Shown: piece after piece, positions 2,039 through 55,068 of the stretch
How positions within the stretch are numbered: position 1 is the first letter of the stretch
Layout: each line of letters starts with the position of its first letter
Source: an uncultured Gemmatimonadales bacterium
Lineage (GTDB): Bacteria; Gemmatimonadota; Gemmatimonadetes; Gemmatimonadales; GWC2-71-9
Direction of reading: 5' to 3'
Length of the DNA: 64,000 nucleotides
Assembly: GCA_963748815.1 (NCBI GenBank)
Contig: CAVVKJ010000005.1
Location: 128,001 to 192,000, forward strand
Notes under the pieces: generated by a model
Database searches by the model: none
What the model was told of the DNA's origin: nothing
What the model saw: only the letters and a program-made list of their open reading frames with translations
Position numbers and translations under genes: made by a program

Positions 2039-3381
2039 ATGACCAAGATCCACCCAACCCGGCGGGACTTCGTGGGCAGCGTGGCGGCGGCGAGCACGGC
2101 CTTCACCATCGTGCCGCGTCACGTCCTCGGCGGCCCCGGCTACACCGCGCCGAGCGACCTGCTGAACATCGCGTGCATCGGCGTGGGCGGCATGGGGGAA
2201 AGCGACGTCCGCGGGGTGTCGAGCCAGAACATCTACGCGCTGTGCGACGTGGACCTCAAGCAATCGGAAGACACCTTCCGGAAGTATCCGAACGCCAAGA
2301 AGTACCGCGACTACCGCGAAATGCTCGACCAGGAGGGGAAGCACATCGACGCCGTGACCATCACGATTCCCGACCACGGCCACGCCGCGGCGGCGATGAT
2401 GGCGCTCCGGATGAACAAGAACGTCTATTGCCAGAAGCCGCTGGCGCGCACGCTGACGGAGGTGCGCGCGCTCAAGGCGCAGGCGGCCAAGACGAAGGTG
2501 GCCACCCAGATGGGCAACCAGGGGCACGCCGGCGAGGGGATCCGGACGCTGCGCGAATGGGTCGAAGCCGGCGTGATCGGCACCGTGCGCGAGGTGCAGT
2601 ACTGGACCAACCGCCCGATCTGGCCCCAGGGCATGGAGCGCCCGACCGACCTCCACGCCCCGCCGCTCACGCTCGACTGGAATCTCTGGCTCGGGCCGGC
2701 GCCGGAGCGGCCCTACAATCCGGCCTACGCCCCGTTCCGCTGGCGCGGGTGGTGGGACTTCGGGACCGGCGCCCTGGGCGACATGGCCTGCCACGGCATG
2801 GACGCCGCCTACTGGATTCTCGATCTCGGCTACCCGGAGCGAATCATCCCCGAATCCACCCAGCGCTATCTCGAGACGGCGCCGAAGTCGAGCCGGGTGG
2901 AATACCAGTTCCCGGCCAAGGGAAAGCGGCCCGGCGGTGAAGGTGGTCTGGCGCGACGGCGACCTCCGCCCGCCGCAGCCGGTAGGGCTTCCCATCACGA
3001 TGGAATGGCCACCGTCCGACATCGGCGGGCAGATGTGGGTGGGCGACGACGGCGCCCTGATTGCGGGCATGTATGGCGAGGATCCGGTCTTGCTCGACCC
3101 CAAGCGCGACGCGGAAGTGCGGGCCAATCCGCCGGTCAAGGTCTATGACCGCTCGAAGGGGGTGCATGACGAGTGGATCGACGCCTGCAAGGGTGGGCCG
3201 GCCGGCGCTGTCGAGCTTCGACGGCTACGCGGGCGGACTGACGGAGATGGTGCTGCTGGGGTGCCTGGCCATCCGGGCGGGGCAGACGCTGCAGATCGAT
3301 CCGGTGACCGGAAACGTGACGAACATGAAGTTGCCGGAGGAGTGGATTACGCCGAAATACCGGAGTGGCTGGACGCTGTAG
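2039..3381 (+). CDS. Gfo/Idh/MocA oxidoreductase with Tat signal, frameshifted
   Basis: TRRDF Tat motif, [31 protein letters not shown]; shifts near 2935 and 3205. Confidence 0.88.
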
Positions 3382-3411
3382 GCCCGCCGCCGCCCTCAGG
3401 AAGGGACGCGC

Positions 3412-4740
3412 ATGCCCTGGGACCGCCTGCAGTTCGCCTTCACCGTCACCTATCACTACCTCTTTCCCCAGCTCACGATGGGGCTGGCGCTGCTCATCGT
3501 CGTCTTCAAGTGGCAGCACCTGCGCACCGGTGAGGCGCGCTGGGCGCGGGCGGCTCGGTTCTGGGCGCGCATCTTCGGCATCAACTTCGGCGTCGGCGTG
3601 GTCACCGGCATCCCCCTCGAGTTCCAGTTCGGGACCAACTGGGCCGCGTTCTCCGCCTATGCGGGCGGCGTCATCGGGCAGACGCTGGCGATGGAAGGGG
3701 TCTTCGCCTTCTTCCTCGAATCCACGGTGCTCGGCCTGTTCCTCTACGGCGAGAAGATGCTGAGCCCGCGGGCGCACTTCGCCACCGCGGTGCTGCTCTG
3801 CCTGGGCAGCTGGGCGTCGGGCTACTTCATCGTGGCCACCAACGCCTTCATGCAGCATCCGGTGGGCTACGCGGTGGACGCCGCCGGCAGCGCTGCAGGT
3901 CAGTTCCTTCGGCGCGTTCCTGCTCAACCCCTGGGCGCTCTGGCAGTACGCCGCACACCATGAGCGCCGCCGTCATCACCGGCGCCTTCGTGGTGGCCGC
4001 CGTAGGCGCCTTCTGGCAGTTGAGCGGCCGGCACCTGGAGGACGCGCGGACCTTCCTGCAGGTGGGCGTGCTGTGCGGCCTGATCGCCACGGTCGACGCA
4101 GATCATGCCGACCGGCGACCAGCGCGGGAAGCTCGTGGCCCGGGACCAGCCGGTCGGGCTGGCCGCCATGGAAGGGCGTCTTCAATGGCGGACCCGAAGC
4201 GCCGCTGGCCATCATCGGCCAGCCCGAACATGGAGGCCGGCCGGCTGGACAACCCGATCGAGGTGCCGGCGGTGCTGAGCTTCCTGGCCTACGGCTCCTT
4301 CGGCAGCACGGTGCAGGGGCTGAACGATTTTCCGCGGGACACCTGGCCCGACAACATTCCCCTCCTGTACTACGCCTATCACATCATGGTCGGGCTCGGC
4401 ACCCTGATGCTCGCGCTCATGGCGGTGAGCGCCCTGCTCCTCTGGAGAAAGCGGCTCTTCGACACTCCCGCCGTGCTCTGGGCGCTCATGCTGGCCTTCC
4501 CGTTTCCCTACATCGCGACGACGGCCGGATGGATCACCACCGAACTGGGCCGCGCAGCCCTGGATCGTCTACGGGCTGATGCGCACGCACGCCGGCGCCT
4601 CGCCGTCGGTCAACGAGGGCGAGGTGGTCTTCAGCACGATCGGATTCATGGGACTCTACCTGGTGGTCGGCCTGCTCTTCCTCTATCTCGTTGCGCGCGA
4701 GCTGCATCACGGCCCCCGTCCTGCTGCCGGGGAGGCGTGA
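3412..4740 (+). CDS. cydA: Cytochrome bd ubiquinol oxidase subunit I, frameshifted
   Basis: RLQFAFTVTYHYLF, GVVTGIPLEFQFGTNW, EGVFAFFLES, NAFMQHP, GWITTELGR; several indels. Confidence 0.9.
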
Positions 4741-4742
4741 CG

Positions 4743-5781
4743 ATGGCGGCGCTCTGGTTCGGGTTGCTGGCCGTGATGCTGGCCGTGTACGCGGTGCTCG
4801 ATGGCTTCGACTTCGGGGTCGGCGTGCTGCATCAGACTCGTGGCCCGGACCGACGCGGAGCGGCGCCAGGTGCTGAACACCATCGGGCCGGTATGGGACG
4901 GCAACGAGGTGTGGCTGATCGCGTCGGGGGCGTGCTCTTCCTGACCTTTCCCGCCGCCTATGCCGCCGGGATTCAGCGGCTTCTACCTGCCCCTGATGGT
5001 CGTGCTCTGGCTGCTGATCCTGCGCGGGCTGTCGATCGAGCTCCGCTCCCACGAGGCACACCCGCTCTGGCGGGCCTTCTGGGACGCCACGCTGCAATTG
5101 GCGTCGGTCCTGATGGCCGTCGTCCTCGGCGCGGCGCTGGGCAACGTGATCCGCGGCGTTCCGCTCGACGCGTCAGGGTACTTCCAGCCTGCCGCTCTTC
5201 GGGGATTTCTCGCCCTGGGGACCCGACCGGCGTGCTCGACTGGTACACCACGACGATCGGCGTCCTCACGCTGGCCATCCTGACGCTCCACGGTGCCCTC
5301 TACCTGGTTTGGAAGGCCGAGGGACCGGTGGCGGCGCGTGCGCTGGCGGTCGCCCGAAGGACGTGGTGGATCGTGGCCGTCCTGGGCATGGTCGCGACGG
5401 CGCTGACGTGGAAGGTGCAGCCCGGGCTGTATGTGATGATCGGGAGCCGGATCTGGCCGACCGCCCTGGTGGCGGTCGGCGCTCGCGGGATATCTCAGTG
5501 TGCCGCTCAGGCTCAATCGAAGCGAGGAGCGGAGCGCATTCCTGGGCTCGGTCGCCGTCATCCTCGGCATCCTGGGTGCGACGGCCGCCGGCCTCTATCC
5601 AAACATCCTCAGCTCCAACATCGACCCGCAGTTCTCGATCACGGCCCAGTCGGCGCAGGCGGGCGGGTATGGATTGCGGGTCGCGCTGGTCTGGTGGGTG
5701 CCGGGAATCCTGCTGGCGATAGGGTACTTCGCCCATCTGTTCTGGCGGTTCCGGGGGAAGGTGGGAGTGGGGGAGGTCTGA
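4743..5781 (+). CDS. cydB: Cytochrome bd ubiquinol oxidase subunit II, frameshifted
   Basis: [41 protein letters not shown]; directly follows cydA. Confidence 0.88.
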
Positions 5782-5800
5782 GCGCCGGAGTCCATGAGAC

Positions 5801-5877
5801 TGGACCCCGGCTTTCGCGGGGGTGACGGCAGGTAGATCCCCCCTCTCCGCTTGCCGGAGAGGGGGCAGGGGGTGAGG
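5801..5877 (-). repeat. Composite REP unit: family 1 (CCCCCTCTCC-GGCAAGC-GGAGAGGGG) plus family 2 (CGTCACCCC..GAAAGCCGGGGTCCA)
   Basis: Reverse complement is nearly identical to 22624-22702; abuts the stop codon at 5878-5880. Confidence 0.85.
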
Positions 5878-9399: not shown

Positions 9400-9551
9400 C
9401 GGCCCGTCCGGGGGAGGAGGATTCGGAAAGTACAGCGTGAGGCTCGGACCGGCTAGCGGGGCGTCAGCAAGTCTCACGCGTCTTCAGCGGCTCGGTGAGG
9501 CCCACCGCGATCTCACATTCCCGCTCCCCGCTTCCCTCCCCGCCTCTTTCA

Positions 9552-9704
9552 CCTCACCCCCTGACCCCCTCTCCGGCAAGCGGAGAGGGGGGACGTGCGT
9601 TCCGATTTCGATCGTCACCCCGGCGAAAGCCGGGGTCCATGTTTGGCCTTCCCCGCGTCTTTCACCTCACCCCCTGGCCCCCTCTCCACCATGTGGAGAG
9701 GGGG
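9552..9704 (+). repeat. REP mosaic: family 1 (9552-9592), family 2 (9613-9639), family 1 with ACCATGT loop (9665-9704)
   Basis: Palindromic units match those at 22624-22702 and 23411-23451. Confidence 0.85.
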
Positions 9705-9714
9705 TGTGAGATGC

Positions 9715-11557
9715 CTAGGGGGACTTACTGAACCGAGCCTGTCGCGGTGGGCTGGACGCGCCACTCGGCAGGAAGACCACGGCGGTCACGACAGTCCCGG
9801 CGCCGTCCACCGTCAGCGTGAGCGGGCCAGTGTACTCGGCTGAACTCTCCGTGGGGATTGTGCTGTCCAGCGTGTACCGAATGACCCCGTTGGCCAGTGG
9901 GCTCGTGAGGGTGACCACGGCGGAGCCGTTCGGCGTTGCCTGGTTCTTCTCCAGCCCCACCACGCTCGGCACCCGGTAGTTGACGCCCAGCCGGTCCAGC
10001 CCGTCGAGCGCGGAAGGCAGCCGCGCCATGAAGCTCGCCCAGTCCCGCGCCGAGGCAGGGCTCCAGGTCACTTCGGCCATGGCCAGCATCCGTGGAAAGA
10101 TCATGAACTCGACCCGATACGGGGTGGTCATGTACTCGGTCCACACATTGCCCTGGGCGCCGATGATGTGCGTGGCCTCCCCAGCAGTCAGCACATCCGG
10201 CACCGGCTCGAATCCGTAGACCTTGTCGAGCGGCACGTTGCCGCCGATCGAGAAGGGCTCGAGCGCTGGATCTCCCTGAGCGTAGTCGAAGTAGCTGTGG
10301 CTGGTGGGCGTCATGATCACGTCGTGCCCCTGCTGCGCCGCGGCGATGCCGCCGCTCACGCCGCGCCAGCTCATGACGGTGGCGTCGGGGGCGAGCCCGC
10401 CCTCGAGAATTTCATCCCACCCGATCAGCCGTCGGCCGTGCGCGTTCAGGAACCGTTCGATCCGCTGCACGAACCAGCTCTGGAGGGCATGTTCGTCGGC
10501 CAGCTGCTCCCGCTGGATGATGGACTGCGCCAGGTCGCTCGATTTCCACCGCGCCTTGGGCGCCTCGTCGCCGCCGACATGGATGTACGGCCCCGGAAAG
10601 AGGGCCATCACCTCGGTCAGGACGCCTTCAAGGAAGGCGAAGGTGGCCTCGCTCGGGCAGAAGATATCTTCCTCGACGCCCCACACCGTGCCGACCTCGA
10701 AGGGCCCCGGGGTGCAGGCCAGCTCGGGGTAGGAGGCGAGGGCGGCCATGGCATGACCCGGCATCTCGATTTCCGGGACGATGGTGATGTGCCGGGCGGC
10801 GGCATACGCCACTACCTGCCGGATCTCCTCCTGGGTATAGAAGCCGCAGTAGGGGATCCCGTCGCCGACATAGGGATTGAAGTTCTTGCTCGACGATCGT
10901 CTCGCGGCGACAGGAGCCGACGTCGGTGAGCTTCGGGTACGCCTTGATCTCGATCCGCCACCCCTGGTCGTCGGTCAGGTGCCAGTGGAAGGTGTTGAAC
11001 TTGTAGCGGGAAAGGAGGTCGATGTACCGCTCCACGAACGCCACCGGGAAGAAGTGCCGACTCACGTCGAGGTGCATGCCACGGTAGGGGAAGCGCGGGG
11101 CGTCGGTGATTTCGACGCGCGGCACCGTGCCCAACTCTCCGGCGTGGAGCAGCTGGCGGAAGGTCTGGAGGCCGTGGAAGAGGCCGGCCTCGGTCGGGGC
11201 CTCGATCACCACGCCCGACGACTGGCTGCTGAGGCGATAGCCCTCACGGCCCAGGATAGAGTCAGGGGCAATGAGTTGAAGTATCAGTCCGGCGGGTGGG
11301 GCGGGGCCGCTGCTGACCACCGGGCGCCATCCCAGTTCCGCCTCCAGCAGGTCGCTGGCGTAGGCCCCGAGCGCGGCGAGATCGCTCGGCTGGGGCGCCT
11401 GGAGCTGGATGCGGTGCCGCAGGGGAACGGCGCCGGTGTTCTGGATGACTTTCTTGGGGTACGGGATGAGCGGAAGGGGGGCCTGGGCGCTGACTGCCCG
11501 CACCGAGCAGACCGAGAGAACGAGGAGCAGTATCGCGCAGAGAATTCTCAAGGCCAT
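9715..11557 (-). CDS. Beta-N-acetylhexosaminidase (GH20) with C-terminal Fn3-associated/chitobiase-like domain, frameshifted
   Basis: RGMHLDVSRHFF, HWHLTDDQGWR, PEIEMPGH, HVGGDE, GAQGNVWTEY, IRYTLD; shift near 10890. Confidence 0.92.
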
Positions 11558-21816: not shown

Positions 21817-22623
21817 ATGTCTGATACTGCGCGCCCCCAGCTGATCCGCCTCGAAGTGGACCGTCGACTCGGCCACGAATGGGATGAGTGGGACGGCAAC
21901 CCATTGCCCAACCAGGGCAATTTCGACTCCCCGCCGCACCTCTTCTTCCAGTGGTCGGCGGCGGGGCTGGCCGTGGCACTCGGCATCGCGGCACTCGCCC
22001 TCTACCTGCTCGGCCCCCGGATTGGCCTCGTGTTGCCCGGCGTCCCATCCTATCTGTGGATCGGGCTGGGCGTTGTATCCGGCGCATCGTGGCTCTGGTG
22101 GCTGCTCATCCTGCTCAGCTACGCCACCGACCGGTCATTCCTCCCCGCGGTGCTGGCGGAGCGGGGGCCGTTCCTCCGGCTGATGACCATGACCTCGCGG
22201 GTGGCGGACCGATTCGGCCGGCGCGACTGGGTGGAGAATGCCGCGGTCAAGGTGTACAACGCCCTCGCGGTGGTACGGGCCAAGGCGGTGGGTAAGGGTG
22301 AACTGCTGCTGCTCATCCCGCGCTGCCTATCCAAGCCCGCTATCGACGGCGTCCTGGCACTGTCCGGTAAATACGAGGTGCCGGTGTTCGTGGCCACGCG
22401 TGGTCAGCTGGCCCGGCGCGTCATCCGGGAGCGGCGGCCGCGTGCCATCGTGGCGGTGGCGTGCGAGCGGGACATGGTGAGTGGGTTGCATGACGTGGCG
22501 GGACGAGTGCCGGTGCTCGGGCTCACGATGACGCTGCCGGCGGGGCCGTGCAAAGATGCAGGGCTCAATCTGGTGCAGCTGGAGGAGTGGGTGAAGGTCT
22601 TCGTGGAAGAGGTGGGGCAGTAG
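21817..22623 (+). CDS. DUF116 domain membrane protein
   Basis: LLLIPRCL, FVATRG..AR, AIVAVACERD, PCKD. Confidence 0.8.
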   Translation: MSDTARPQLIRLEVDRRLGHEWDEWDGNPLPNQGNFDSPPHLFFQWSAAGLAVALGIAALALYLLGPRIGLVLPGVPSYLWIGLGVVSGASWLWWLLILLSYATDRSFLPAVLAERGPFLRLMTMTSRVADRFGRRDWVENAAVKVYNALAVVRAKAVGKGELLLLIPRCLSKPAIDGVLALSGKYEVPVFVATRGQLARRVIRERRPRAIVAVACERDMVSGLHDVAGRVPVLGLTMTLPAGPCKDAGLNLVQLEEWVKVFVEEVGQ

Positions 22624-23451
22624 CCTCACCCCCTGACCCCCTCTCCGGCAAGCGGAGAGGGGGGATCTTATTTGCCGTCACCCCGGCGAAAGCCGGGGTC
22701 CATCGTAGATTCGATTGTCACCCCGGCGAAAGCCGGGGTCCATGTTGTTGCTGCCCACTTGCCCCGCCTAGTTCGCCTCACCCCCGGTCCGTCTCTCCGG
22801 CATCGTCCTCACCCCCTGACCCCCTCTCCGCCATGCGGAGAGGGGGACGACCTGCACGCCCCTGGATCCGCCCTCTCCGGCAAGCGGAGAGGGGGAACGT
22901 CGTGCAGGATTCGGATCAGGGGCTCTCATGGGAGATCACCTATCGTGTAGCATGCGATACCGTCCAGTCGGTTTGCTCAGGACGCTTGCCAGAAGAATGC
23001 GGAAGGAGCCGACCGGCGCCGAACGCACCGTCTGGACAGTACTCAGGGACCGCCGGTGCTTGGGTTACCGATTCAAGCGGCAAGTTGTGATCGAGGGGTT
23101 GATCGTCGATTTCTACTGTCGCGAGTTGCGCCTGGCCATCGAACTTGACGGGGCGGTCCACCAGACGCGGGAGGGACGACTCCGGGACCAGGCGCGGGAC
23201 GCGCACCTGCGGTCATGCGGGATCCGGGTAATCCACCTCCAGAACGAGCAGGCCTCCGGGGCGCGTCTCCGTGCGGTTCTCACGGAGTTCGTCCTGCGTC
23301 CCCCCTCTCCGCTTGCCGGAGAGGGGGTCAGGGGGTGAGGACGAAAGGCGGGGCCGGGGGCCAGGGGAGCAGGAAACCTGGACTCGCTTTCGCGGGGTGA
23401 CGGCAATAATCCCCCCTCTCCACATGGTGGAGAGGGGGACAGGGGGTGAGG
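22624..23451. mobile_element. Putative DUF559 REP cassette 1: nuclease gene inside inverted REP arrays
   Basis: Left array 22624-22895 and right array 23300-23451 are inverted; the unit fills the whole gap between two convergent stop codons. Mobility is inferred. Confidence 0.6.
22952..23338 (+). CDS. DUF559 endonuclease-fold protein
   Basis: ARRMRKEPT.AE..W..LR.RR..G.RFKRQ, IVDFYC..LRLAIELDG.VH, RD.ARD..L; C-terminal PSPLAGEG encoded by the REP. Confidence 0.9.
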   Translation: MRYRPVGLLRTLARRMRKEPTGAERTVWTVLRDRRCLGYRFKRQVVIEGLIVDFYCRELRLAIELDGAVHQTREGRLRDQARDAHLRSCGIRVIHLQNEQASGARLRAVLTEFVLRPPSPLAGEGVRG

Positions 23452-24039
23452 CTACTTCGCGTCCGGCGGCCTCCCCTTCGGAACCGGCTTCCCGGTGGCA
23501 CTATCCGGCCGCGCCGCGCCGGTTGAATCCGGCATCACGCCCGGCGGCGGCCCCTTCGGCTCCTCCGCCCCCGGCACCGGGTACCGTTTCGCCATGTCGG
23601 TCAGCACGCGCGCCACCCGCACCGCCGCGACGTTGTCGCTCGGTGCCTGCTGGTCGAGCTCGCGGGGCGGCAGTGAGGGATTGGCCAGCGGCCGCACCGC
23701 CGTCTCCACCCGGATCGACCCCCGCTCCTTCCCGTAGGCGTTGACCCATCCCCGCACCCGCACGACGCTGTCTCCAAGAATGCGCGCATCGGTCGGCTGC
23801 CCGGTGAGCGCGCTGAACCACTCCGTCTCCAGGTAGCCGTCCTTCGGCTCGACCCGGCTGACCGGGATCGAATCCGACTTCAGCTGTTCGGCGAGCACCT
23901 CCGTCGCCTTGGCCACGTCGAGATCCACGACCGCTTCCGCGGCGTTTGGCAGCGGGCCGAATGCAGGGCGAGTTGTGTACGGTTGACAGGCGATCACAGC
24001 CAACAGGCACATCGCGCCGGGATGCCTTGCCCGGCGCAT
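23452..24039 (-). CDS. Hypothetical lipoprotein
   Basis: Lipobox-like VIAC, DGYLETEW, GC-rich codon usage; start uncertain. Confidence 0.6.
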   Translation of the reverse strand: MRRARHPGAMCLLAVIACQPYTTRPAFGPLPNAAEAVVDLDVAKATEVLAEQLKSDSIPVSRVEPKDGYLETEWFSALTGQPTDARILGDSVVRVRGWVNAYGKERGSIRVETAVRPLANPSLPPRELDQQAPSDNVAAVRVARVLTDMAKRYPVPGAEEPKGPPPGVMPDSTGAARPDSATGKPVPKGRPPDAK

Positions 24040-24077
24040 CCGGCCCCGCTGCCCCGCTGCCCCGCTGCCCCGCCTCA

Positions 24078-24734
24078 TCAGTCCTTGTGCTCCGGTGTGC
24101 CCGGTGCGTGCGTGTGCGCCGGCTTGGCGGGTGCGGCGCTGTCAGTCGGGGCGCCTGTCGAGTCCGCCGGCATCGGCGCGTCGTCGTGCTCTTCGCCCGG
24201 CGCATGCTCGTGACCGCCCGCGCGGTTCTTGATCTCCGCCTCCATCTTCTCGGTGCTCATACCGGCGGCGTGATCGAACACCAGCTCGCCCCCCTCCATG
24301 CCGGTGGCGGTCAGCGGGACCAGCCCGACCACGCCGATCAGCGCCAACACCCACCGCTCCTTCCGGAGCATCTTCGATTCCCGCAGCACCCGCCACACCG
24401 CCACCACGCCAAAGAAGCCGAGGGTAATCCACGCGAACCGCTCGTGCACCTGCATGATCTCGTGGATGGACTGCCCATGCTCGAGCGCGTCTTCCGCCCG
24501 AAGCCCCGAAAAGAGCGCGGCGGCGGCGGTCACCGCGCCGATGACCAGCGACCAGTACGACGCGCTCCGCAGGCTCTCCCGTTTCGTGAACAGGTAGGCG
24601 AGCTCCAGGAGCACGCCGACCACCAGCAGCGCCGGCGGGAAGTCGTTGATGACGGCGTGCAGCCGCGGGGCGTCGTAGCCGAAGAACGTGCCCGCGGCGG
24701 CGGCGTCGCCGTGGAGCAGGAGAGAGAGCAGCAT
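24078..24734 (-). CDS. DUF2231-like membrane protein with His-rich tail
   Basis: LHAVINDFP, AAALFSG, GGELVFDH; four TM segments. Confidence 0.7.
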   Translation of the reverse strand: MLLSLLLHGDAAAAGTFFGYDAPRLHAVINDFPPALLVVGVLLELAYLFTKRESLRSASYWSLVIGAVTAAAALFSGLRAEDALEHGQSIHEIMQVHERFAWITLGFFGVVAVWRVLRESKMLRKERWVLALIGVVGLVPLTATGMEGGELVFDHAAGMSTEKMEAEIKNRAGGHEHAPGEEHDDAPMPADSTGAPTDSAAPAKPAHTHAPGTPEHKD

Positions 24735-34946: not shown

Positions 34947-35100
34947 GGCGTCCCCCCTCTCCATCATATGGAGAGGGGGACAGGGGGTGAGGCAAGACTG
35001 CGGGGCCGCGGGGCAGGGGGGCAGCGGGGCAGTCAATTGCATCAATCCTTTGCGGGCGTCCCCCCTCTCCATCATATGGAGAGGGGGACAGGGGGTGAGG
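34947..35100 (-). repeat. Two direct family 1 copies (ATCATAT loop) separated by octamer repeats
   Basis: GGCGTCCCCCCTCTCCATCATATGGAGAGGGGGACAGGGGGTGAGG at about 34947-34992 and 35055-35100. Confidence 0.85.
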
Positions 35101-54502: not shown

Positions 54503-54922
54503 CTAACCCCTCACCCCCCGGCCCCCTCTCCCTCCGGGAGAGGGGGTGGTGAAGGGTTGGAGGAGGCTGCGAAATCGTTCGACGTTCACCTCCGCATTCG
54601 GGATTCGAAGCACCCGAACACCCAAGGACTCGATCTGCGCGTCGCGTTGGAGGTCGCGAATTGGATGCCCGTCCTCTTGATGGATGGGGCCATCCAACTC
54701 GATTGCCAGGCGCAATTGCGCACAATAGAAGTCCACGATGAATGGTCCTACGATTTGCTGACGTCGAAATCGCAGCCCCAACATCCTTCTGCCACGAAGG
54801 AGTTCCCATGCCTGCCGCTCGGCAGCGGTTCCCTCACGCCGGAGTCGCCGTGCCTGATCGAGCAGGAGCGGATTCTGGTGTTGACGGGCGATGACACCCC
54901 TGCCTGTCGGAACTCTGGGCAC
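54503..54922 (-). CDS. DUF559 endonuclease-fold protein
   Basis: ARRLRREGT.AE..AW.LLR.RR.LG.RFRRQ..VGPFIVDFYC..LRLAIELDG.IH, RD.QRD, G.RVLR..N; GTG after GGGGAGG. Confidence 0.9.
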   Translation of the reverse strand: MPRVPTGRGVIARQHQNPLLLDQARRLRREGTAAERQAWELLRGRRMLGLRFRRQQIVGPFIVDFYCAQLRLAIELDGPIHQEDGHPIRDLQRDAQIESLGVRVLRIPNAEVNVERFRSLLQPFTTPSPGGRGGRGVRG

Positions 54923-55068
54923 ACTCGCCTCCCCCGAAATCTGCCCAAGGTGGCTATCAATGCGCGGAATGGTGATACCATTTCCCCGCAAGTCAGCACG
55001 AGCAATTGCGTTGGCGCTCACCTCTCCCCTCTCCCGGAGGGAGAGGGGGGTAAGGGGGTGAGGGGTTA
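54504..55068. mobile_element. Putative DUF559 REP cassette 2
   Basis: Ends TAACCCCTCACCCC... and ...GGGGTGAGGGGTTA with inverted CCCCTCTCCCGGAGGGAGAGGGG hairpins (54507-54546, 55026-55065). Mobility is inferred. Confidence 0.6.

Follow-up and report, generated by a model that had tools for sequence, protein, structure and literature searches.

Catalogues of BoxC/PIT/TM_ECO repeats cover hundreds of genomes, yet to our knowledge none of these repeats has a protein assigned to it. The DUF559 family is large, and we know of almost no biology for it. In this work we analysed a window of 64,000 nucleotides (the whole stretch of DNA, G000:C5:128001-192000, from assembly G000 of 3.16 Mb and 68.6% G+C, to which Gemmatimonadales MAGs are the nearest named relatives), in which a DUF559 gene lies between inverted units of a repeat of this kind, forming an 828-base cassette. 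The association of the DUF559 gene with triplex-type repeats of matching type is strong, replicated and found across phyla. Furthermore, gene, stop codon and repeat are physically fused, and this gene-plus-repeat layout recurs across phyla.

A comparable layout is known from the REP/REPIN elements with a RAYT gene (an HUH Y1 transposase, PF01797), where the enzyme gene is framed by inverted copies of the palindromic repeat scattered in the genome. The cassette also has an enzyme gene between inverted copies of a dispersed repeat, there are also gene-less doublets and the repeat type matches the enzyme locus. Nevertheless, the enzyme of the cassette is a Vsr-fold PD-(D/E)XK nuclease instead of an HUH transposase, and the repeat has a third, mirrored segment and is nearly the same across phyla rather than species-specific. 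Moreover, the sole RAYT gene of the genome is a separate one outside the window (C5:409955-410290; PF01797, E 8.8e-22) with its own palindrome, GGGGTGGGCRTAYGCCCACCCC, on both sides, and therefore the units of the cassette are not the RAYT-linked REPs of this genome. As the cassette lacks the PF01797 enzyme, it lies outside the REP/RAYT systems and resembles them in layout only.

Regarding the repeat, the part of Holder 2015 at hand (PMC4666352) describes a common three-part motif, in which a C-rich stem is followed, after a loop of 3-7 nt, by a complementary G-rich stem and then, after a 3-nt loop, by a mirrored G-rich stem that has T or A opposite A. The units of the cassette, called TM units below, have the same build (CCCCCTCTCC, a 3-7 nt loop, GGAGAGGGGG, NNN, GGGGGTGAGG; the first stem is C-rich, the second complements it, and the third segment is G-rich and mirrored, again with T or A opposite A) and are present in many copies. 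Judged by its sequence, the repeat is this published BoxC/PIT/TM_ECO 'intrastrand triplex' motif and not a classical REP, the family to which the first-pass annotation had assigned it. In both cases there are tens of intergenic copies, solos as well as inverted pairs, at loci that vary between close strains. However, the stems are 10 nt long here (CCCCCTCTCC / GGAGAGGGGG / GGGGGTGAGG), in a Gemmatimonadales-like genome, whereas the TMECO units of Holder are proteobacterial with 9-nt stems. The main difference is that a DUF559 gene lies between the units here, whereas the consulted part of that paper (PMC4666352) names no enzyme: it ties the units to local instability, reports transposase and integrase remnants as absent at TMECO sites, and contains no mention of ycjD or of an endonuclease. 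By title and abstract, subscription journals and supplements aside, we found no literature linking DUF559 to BoxC/TM_ECO repeats.

Regarding the enzyme, the homing endonuclease I-Bth0305I of the EDxHD family (PMC3239194, PMC3384342, as far as the sections at hand go) has the Vsr-like catalytic fold that is predicted for the cassette protein, and both would be encoded by selfish genes present or absent at a fixed site. According to PMC3384342, the EDxHD family derives from Vsr and has an essential Asp, a proximal Asp and a His that serves as the general base. However, I-Bth0305I is located in a group I intron of a phage recA gene (PMC3239194), whereas the cassette encodes a free-standing protein of 128 aa and is framed by multi-copy repeats; there is no intron, intein or single conserved target gene, the cassette being intergenic between two stop codons. 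Vsr and the Caulobacter protein VsrA (PMC12907096) share with the cassette protein the domain family, the fold and a solitary gene that is apparently unlinked to a methyltransferase. Nevertheless, the passages of that paper on DUF559 and Vsr-like proteins mention no repeat framing (PMC12907096), whereas the gene of the cassette is fused to TM units and its presence at the site is polymorphic. Neither a transposase gene nor a target-site duplication, which would indicate an insertion sequence or a miniature inverted-repeat transposable element, was found for the cassette.

Gene, stop codon and repeat in one cassette

The cassette (22624-23451) fills exactly the gap between the stop codons of two convergent genes. 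At the left border TAG is followed by CCTCACCCCCTG (22621-22635), and at the right border CAGGGGGTGAGG is followed by CTA (23440-23454). The TAG closes a DUF116 gene and the CTA is the stop codon of a gene of 208 aa on the opposite strand, so both flanking genes of the filled allele terminate in TAG flush against the repeat tails (TAG-CCTCACC ... GGTGAGG-CTA). The repeat search of the window gave inverted arms of 48 nt at 22619-22666 / 23409-23456 (90% complementary), and the symmetry extends further inward with arms of 14 nt at 22672-22685 / 23393-23406 (100%). In addition, 42 nt at 22624-22665 / 23299-23340 are 100% complementary, and so are 97% of 29 nt at 22871-22899 / 23297-23325. Aligning the arms showed that they are composites of a TM unit, a second repeat called REP2 (GTCACCCCGGCGAAAGCCGGGGTCCA), a CTGCCCC-like heptad stretch and another TM unit, the left arm having one REP2 and one tail-less hairpin more than the right arm.

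The first-pass annotation had described the 828-base unit between convergent stops with imperfect inverted repeats at its ends, free of transposase or integrase, and all of this agrees with our results: no transposase or integrase was found in the cassette or beside it by a Pfam scan of the open reading frames (ORFs) and the neighbouring genes. Of the two inner hairpins that it listed, the one at 22871-22895 is indeed a tail-less hairpin, and the one at 23300-23340 turned out to be a complete hairpin-plus-tail unit. It had also derived the last codons and the stop of the DUF559 gene from the repeat. Indeed, the repeat tail GGGGGTGAGG contains the stop codon TGA (23336-23338), and the last 12 residues are translated hairpin (PPSPLAGEGVRG). 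The stop codon is likewise inside a TM unit in close homologues. As for a reading of the hairpin downstream of the gene as an intrinsic terminator, no T-run follows it.

The DUF559 gene is the only ORF of the cassette with a family match. The frame 22928-23338 matched PF04480 (DUF559) with E 5.2e-27 and 94.3 bits (cut-off 20.6), its Pfam matches being DUF559, MTES_1575 and DUF2726 only, with no HUH domain. The frame is open from 22928 and the gene caller placed the start at 22997, but the start codon is likely ATG 22952, because the N-terminus MRYRPVGLLR that it gives is conserved in the counterpart on the metagenome contig L121 and nearly so in two homologues of 128 aa (P0002 and P0008). The AlphaFold2 model of the 128-aa protein had a mean predicted local distance difference test (pLDDT) of 83, with a disordered tail at residues 119-128 (pLDDT <50). 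When this model was compared with the PDB by Foldseek, the first match was 3hrl, a DUF559 structure (E 2.7e-6), the second was 3r3p_B, the catalytic domain of I-Bth0305I (E 2.4e-4, TM-score 0.72 by target length, 24% identity) and the third was Vsr (1cw0, E 0.022; 1vsr). All 10 residues that are invariant in an alignment of 35 sequences are kept (T21, E24, W28, R43, Q44, D53, E64, D66, G67 and H70), including the invariant D, E-x-D and H residues, and the protein is presumably an active nuclease.

Genome-wide, the TM repeat had 40 copies at up to 3 mismatches to the 23-nt tail-plus-stem, 43 at up to 4 mismatches and 55 with a looser pattern. In the window the motif finder gave 16 units, and the 23-nt unit had 9 matches against 0 expected from 100 shuffles. 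Folding, computed for the hairpin part of the unit, gave -14.9 kcal/mol (z -4.6) for the outer-left unit of the cassette (22624..22665) and -16.2 kcal/mol (z -6.4) for the inner-left one (22807..22846). Among the flanks of 43 TM units there was no target-site duplication or insertion consensus; they mostly show T(T/C)CA beside the tail, plus a CTGCCCC-rich stretch.

Filled and empty sites, and DUF559 loci in other genomes

In 20 relatives we examined the region that follows the DUF116 orthologue, and none of these 20 loci had a DUF559 match. The 208-aa gene follows DUF116 directly in 12 of the 14 same-genus loci, the remaining two being a contig end and a rearranged locus. In the clean empty relatives DUF116 has a tail encoded by (GGGGCAG)n, after which only 2-4 bp separate the two stop codons. 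The closest empty allele came from a metagenome contig of run X2 (1287 nt), which differs from 22000-22620 at 3 positions in 621 (99.5% identity), has 33 nt in place of 22621-23453 and resumes at 23454 with 11 differences in 173. These 33 nt comprise 8 extra DUF116 codons, TAA and 4 nt before the stop of the other gene; hence a near-identical strain has an empty site, and DUF116 is 8 codons shorter in the filled allele than in the empty one. Empty sites in relatives, as well as an excess of repeats beside DUF559 genes (see below), had been anticipated by the first-pass annotation.

Other states of the site were also observed. The metagenome contig L121 has a DUF116 gene 91% identical to that of the window and, adjoining it, a DUF559 gene 80% identical in the opposite orientation, with the TM tails again outward. 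In the relative G013, whose DUF116 tail sequence matches that of L121, there is only 'GTCACCCCGGCGA-CAGGGGGGCGAGG-CTAC' at the site, where half a REP2 runs into a TM tail that abuts the stop; this is a deletion footprint. The cassette is therefore a discrete insertion with presence/absence polymorphism, bounded by the outer ends of the repeat tails. Its gene type (type A) was found in no other genome of the genus, the best match being 55%; metagenome proteins reached 73-87% identity, and runs X1 and X4 gave only a 93%-identical piece of the gene, broken at repeats. We rejected a joint of 22767 to 23452 on 'opposite strands' in X1 as evidence of inversion, because a heptad-plus-TM composite that occurs at other loci explains it.

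The genome has three DUF559 matches. As the one on C15 is a near-identical duplicate of the C5 stretch, flanks included, they represent two independent loci, and the second one, cassette B, is also in the window. Its gene is 49% identical to that of cassette A. Cassette B and its counterpart in the relative G003 have 566 bp in common at 87% identity, while the flanks are unrelated and nothing beyond can be aligned. This homology starts 3-4 nt outside the upstream TM unit and stops 7-8 nt outside the downstream one, therefore the segment common to both genomes is exactly 'TM, gene, TM'. We discarded the DNA synteny of cassette B with relatives, since this region varies too strongly and most matches fell on TM units. 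Nor did we accept near-identical cores with unrelated flanks as evidence of recent jumps: the pairs L125/L126, L137/L146 and L060/L065 show partial synteny or are entangled in repeats, and WINB/L111 alone is clean.

In order to avoid recruiting homologues via repeat-encoded tails, DUF559 loci were searched with a core-only alignment of five sequences. TM units were counted with a strict finder, checked on the window, which demands an 8-nt pyrimidine stem, its complement with at most 1 mismatch and the mirrored third segment with at most 1 mismatch. Of 564 confirmed genome loci we used the best 80, which come from many phyla. In these, the 39,324 bp lying no more than 250 bp from the DUF559 core contained 110 TM units and the remaining 361,514 bp contained 26, which is a 39-fold enrichment; 55 of the 80 loci had at least one unit within 250 bp and 34 had units on both sides. 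The result was replicated in 67 metagenome loci, with 1.82 units per kb within 250 bp against 0.084 per kb elsewhere (22-fold), at least one unit in 28 loci and units on both sides in 17. The enrichment near DUF559 was also seen in genomes of 31-42% G+C.

The TM units vary by lineage (for instance GGGAAGGGG/GGGGTTAGG and AAGGAGGGG/GGGGAGGTC), and the two units of one locus are alike. Furthermore, the type beside the DUF559 gene is the dominant type dispersed in that genome. In three delta-proteobacterial genomes whose DUF559 gene is framed by GGGAAGGGG/GGGGTTAGG, units of this type numbered 173, 97 and 87 and those of the window type 2, 14 and 11, whereas genome G044 showed the reverse pattern, with none of the GGGAAGGGG/GGGGTTAGG type and 73 of the window type. 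Two layouts were found among the loci, tails outward and tails inward. In a quick tree of 140 cores, 21 of the 24 tails-outward rows fell into a single supported clade with members from Gemmatimonadota, Myxococcota, Sericytochromatia and Competibacteraceae. The layout label changed 6 times on this tree against around 16 in shuffles, none of 500 shuffles being as low; as kin share labels and the tree comes from a quick search, this is to be read as clustering only. The 'GC' label of WINB on the tree is an artefact of a palindromic hairpin read on both strands.

Among relatives of the window genome, 8 of the 9 small DUF559 genes are framed on both sides. In 41 genomes, a small DUF559 gene was present in 9 of the 19 with TM units and in none of the 22 without them. 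Regarding the eight other genera of the family, three had both features, five had neither and none was discordant, and 6 of the 16 other same-genus genomes had a small DUF559 gene.

A related arrangement is found in E. coli K-12, where TMECO no. 9 of Holder (1,351,239-1,351,204; PMC4666352, part at hand) lies 165 bp downstream of the DUF559 gene ycjD (1,351,407-1,351,760) and the C-terminus of YcjD ('...RRSPSP*') lies in a degenerate TM unit. In the same region (L188:5300-5420) the last ~45 nt of ycjD (GGAGACGGTGCTGGAGAATATTC...) are duplicated around 60 bp past the stop, between the degenerate hairpin and TMECO no. 9, which looks like a past rearrangement. According to the part of PMC12817139 at hand, ycjD stands in place of the eefRABCD operon in some E. 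coli phylogroups.

Possible role of the nuclease at the repeats

We tentatively propose, with a confidence that falls a little short of even, that the nuclease recognises and nicks TM repeats and so drives homing-like recombinational copying of the repeats and of its own gene. The DUF559 protein would act on the folded or duplex TM repeat as its substrate and produce nicks or breaks there. These breaks would be repaired from repeat-flanked donors, which may copy or flip the segment between units. As an outcome the gene would be copied, TM units would spread or be homogenised and the segment would sometimes be inverted. The proposal is based on the inserted cassette, on its flipped counterpart in L121 and the footprint in G013, and on the B/G003 homology that ends at the TM tails. 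It is also based on the enrichment of TM units near DUF559, on their co-occurrence in relatives and on the matching of types, as well as on a predicted fold near that of I-Bth0305I with the invariant residues kept and on the different palindrome of the RAYT gene. Finally, it takes into account that ycjD ends in a degenerate unit close to TMECO no. 9 (PMC4666352, part at hand), and that 'DUF559 domain-containing protein' shows a 14-fold enrichment in the predicted inversion targets of Milman 2023 (PMC9881135, available part), where it is given without comment.

Several observations weigh against this proposal. The strict finder gave no TM unit in 25 of the 80 genome loci and in 39 of the 67 metagenome loci, counts that are upper bounds because it misses the E. 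coli TMECO no. 9, which has a G in its C-stem. On the other hand, the finder demands the mirrored third segment and thus the triplex-type covariation is partly built into the counts of units. The relatives are kin, so their counts overstate independence. No target-site duplication or clean cut-and-paste signature was seen at the cassette, the empty allele being a 33-nt replacement, and the right flank of the X2 contig is 6% diverged against 0.5% for the left one; both fit homologous exchange between strains as well as homing. In addition, the in vivo work on a DUF559 protein concerns Caulobacter VsrA (CCNA_02930) alone, which the consulted part of PMC12907096 interprets as a nuclease of mismatch repair with a tie to cytosine methylation. 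Lastly, 10 of the 19 TM-bearing relatives are without a small DUF559 gene, including G013 (69 units), G014 (47) and G008 (36, in a 98% complete genome). Therefore, the repeats persist, and may spread, without it.

The abundance of units in these three relatives would also be expected if DUF559 were a passive cargo, the TM units or double-TM composites being moved by another factor or by host recombination or replication slippage. The window has gene-less composites of the same build (9552-9705 and 34954-35100), and Holder 2015, in the part at hand (PMC4666352), ties the units to local instability without any enzyme. However, no gene but DUF559 was seen between units in all sampled loci across phyla, its stop codon lies inside the unit in close homologues and the TM type tracks the DUF559 locus. 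A transposase is also absent in and beside the cassette, as it is near TMECO sites in the consulted part of Holder (PMC4666352), and we consider the passive cargo unlikely. Slightly less likely still is a host nuclease that processes DNA structures or performs very-short-patch-type repair (of T:G mismatches, or of replication blocks at triplex-forming repeats), with framing repeats that are incidental or regulatory. The Vsr fold of the predicted structure agrees with such a function, and Caulobacter VsrA provokes an SOS response when the cytosine methyltransferase is removed, according to the available part of PMC12907096. There is actually one PF00145 (C5 cytosine methyltransferase) match in the window genome (G000:C10:851218-852170), but it is on another contig, unlinked to either DUF559 locus, and in two pieces with an internal TGA. 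Moreover, a housekeeping gene would not be an insertion polymorphism of patchy distribution in the genus, and neither the 39-fold local repeat enrichment nor the homology ending at the repeat tails would be explained.

The analogy with RAYT layouts (an enzyme gene between inverted repeats, dispersed solos and doublets, folded single-stranded hairpins) could also mean that the nuclease itself excises and inserts single-stranded hairpin units, as HUH transposases do for REPs. This is improbable, since neither a target-site duplication nor a defined target was seen and the HUH domain was absent in the Pfam scan. We know of no strand-transfer chemistry for the PD-(D/E)XK/Vsr fold when acting alone. 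The first-pass annotation had proposed a REP-associated element using DUF559 in place of RAYT; its inserted nature, the empty alleles, the excess of repeats beside DUF559 in the 80 and 67 loci and a RAYT gene elsewhere with a different palindrome speak for that view, whereas transposition by the nuclease does not follow. The orthologous genes in opposite orientation at the same site (G000 and L121), together with the excess of DUF559 among predicted programmed-inversion targets in the part of PMC9881135 at hand, could suggest that the inverted arms are an invertible switch flipping the nuclease gene relative to outside promoters (phase variation), with the dispersed repeats unrelated. Nevertheless, there is no recombinase nearby, the flip is known between organisms and not within one population, the 'opposite strands' joint in X1 is explained by a composite occurring elsewhere, and both the dispersed copies and the empty sites would be left unexplained. 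A switch of this kind is thus hardly to be expected.

Returning to the homing-like copying by the nuclease, a broader claim can be made, which we hold a shade more cautiously: DUF559 may be the missing enzyme partner of BoxC/TM_ECO and, together with the three-part DNA structure, may form a second, RAYT-independent class of selfish repeat system in many phyla, including E. coli K-12 (ycjD), driving instability at the repeats. If this is true, the pairing would give a function to both DUF559 and the TM repeats, and a mobile or repeat-spreading system would be built on a nuclease fold not known for such a role. It would also account for the odd 'PSPLAGEG'-type termini of DUF559 genes in databases, and the pairing would be accessible in E. 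coli K-12 via ycjD. In any case, the natural history of the locus is unusually clean: a near-identical strain has the empty allele, an orthologue at the same site is flipped, a deletion has left its footprint, and homology breaks off at the repeat tails.

Features of the window and minor observations

The coordinates of the features are collected in Table 1. The neighbours of the cassette are an FAD oxidase, DUF116, DUF2231 and a 3-hydroxyacyl-CoA dehydrogenase.

Table 1. Parts of cassette A, its flanking genes, cassette B and the gene-less composites in the window
Feature	Position	Strand	Basis or remark
Gene-less double-TM composite (TM, REP2, heptad, TM), build of one cassette arm	9552..9705	+	arm alignment
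Left flanking gene, DUF116	21817..22623	+	PF01976, E 2.7e-20; stop TAG 22621-22623 abuts cassette
Outer-left TM unit, tail outward: CCTCACCCCC-TGA-CCCCCTCTCC-GGCAAGC-GGAGAGGGGG	22624..22665	.	inverted-arm search and motif finder
Two REP2 copies (GTCACCCCGGCGAAAGCCGGGGTCCA)	22677..22743	+	direct repeat in window
CTGCCCC-like heptad stretch and degenerate TM tail (22775-22802)	22751..22802	.	same stretch before many solo TM units
Inner-left TM unit, loop GCCATGC	22807..22846	.	95% to inner-right unit
Tail-less hairpin CCCTCTCC-GGCAAGC-GGAGAGGG, upstream of DUF559 gene	22871..22895	.	inverted-arm search
DUF559 (Vsr-fold) nuclease gene, 128 aa, start likely	22952..23338	+	PF04480
Inner-right TM unit, overlaps last 12 codons and stop of DUF559 gene	23299..23340	.	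100% complementary to 22624-22665
Heptad-like stretch and degenerate inverted REP2, mirror of left arm	23346..23406	.	repeat search, arm alignment
Outer-right TM unit, loop ACATGGT, second loop ACA	23410..23451	.	commonest TM type in genome
Right flanking convergent gene, 208 aa, no Pfam family	23452..24078	-	stop CTA 23452-23454
Second gene-less double-TM composite	34954..35100	-	motif finder, arm alignment
Cassette B: DUF559 gene core 54578-54859 (-), TM units 54510-54546 and 55025-55062, tails outward	54503..55066	-	same layout as A

Two further sites of the window vary between relatives, which agrees with the instability that Holder found at TM units. The intergenic site 9459-9717 has the double-TM composite in G000 and a single TM unit with another loop type in G008. 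G014 and G002 have a different repeat there and no TM unit, whereas G013 and G016 have an additional ORF. The TM unit 5840-5876 abuts the stop (TCA) of a convergent gene and marks, together with REP2, the right edge of a 2.4-kb segment (3381-5784) that is present in G000 and G008 and replaced by 25-95 bp in G014, G002, G013 and G016.

Regarding the other repeats, REP2 has 113 copies genome-wide at up to 4 mismatches; this second hairpin family frequently forms inverted pairs around 40 bp apart, and no partner gene was identified for it. CTGCCCC heptads precede many solo TM units in G000 and may either belong to the repeat composite or serve as favoured landing sites. They are complementary to (GGGGCAG)n, which encodes the Gly/Arg-rich end of DUF116 in eight loci of relatives (L001-L006, L009 and L018; compare 22612-22620 of the window). 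A third repeat of around 90 bp (...CTTTGCG...TTGAAAAGCATTTAACGCAAG...) occupies in L102, L103 and L110 (G014, G002 and G008) the same intergenic slots as TM units in G000. A short tandem array of GGGTGGGCGTGACCAC lies upstream of the RAYT gene.

The PF00145 match mentioned above is around 1.6 kb from a degenerate TM/REP2 cluster (C10:849592-849680). The two copies of the cassette B region, G000:C15:15676-16857 and C5:182128-183309 (1,182 bp compared), differ by a few substitutions and by two indels of 1 nt, of which one falls in a TM tail; this points to assembly redundancy or a co-assembled strain. Finally, in L113 (G003:C4:278574-278855) and L111 the DUF559 frame continues through tandem TM units, giving repeated 'GGRGGRGGEGLTA' segments; the open frame of L111 reaches 614 aa and is presumably a read-through of repeat arrays instead of a real protein.

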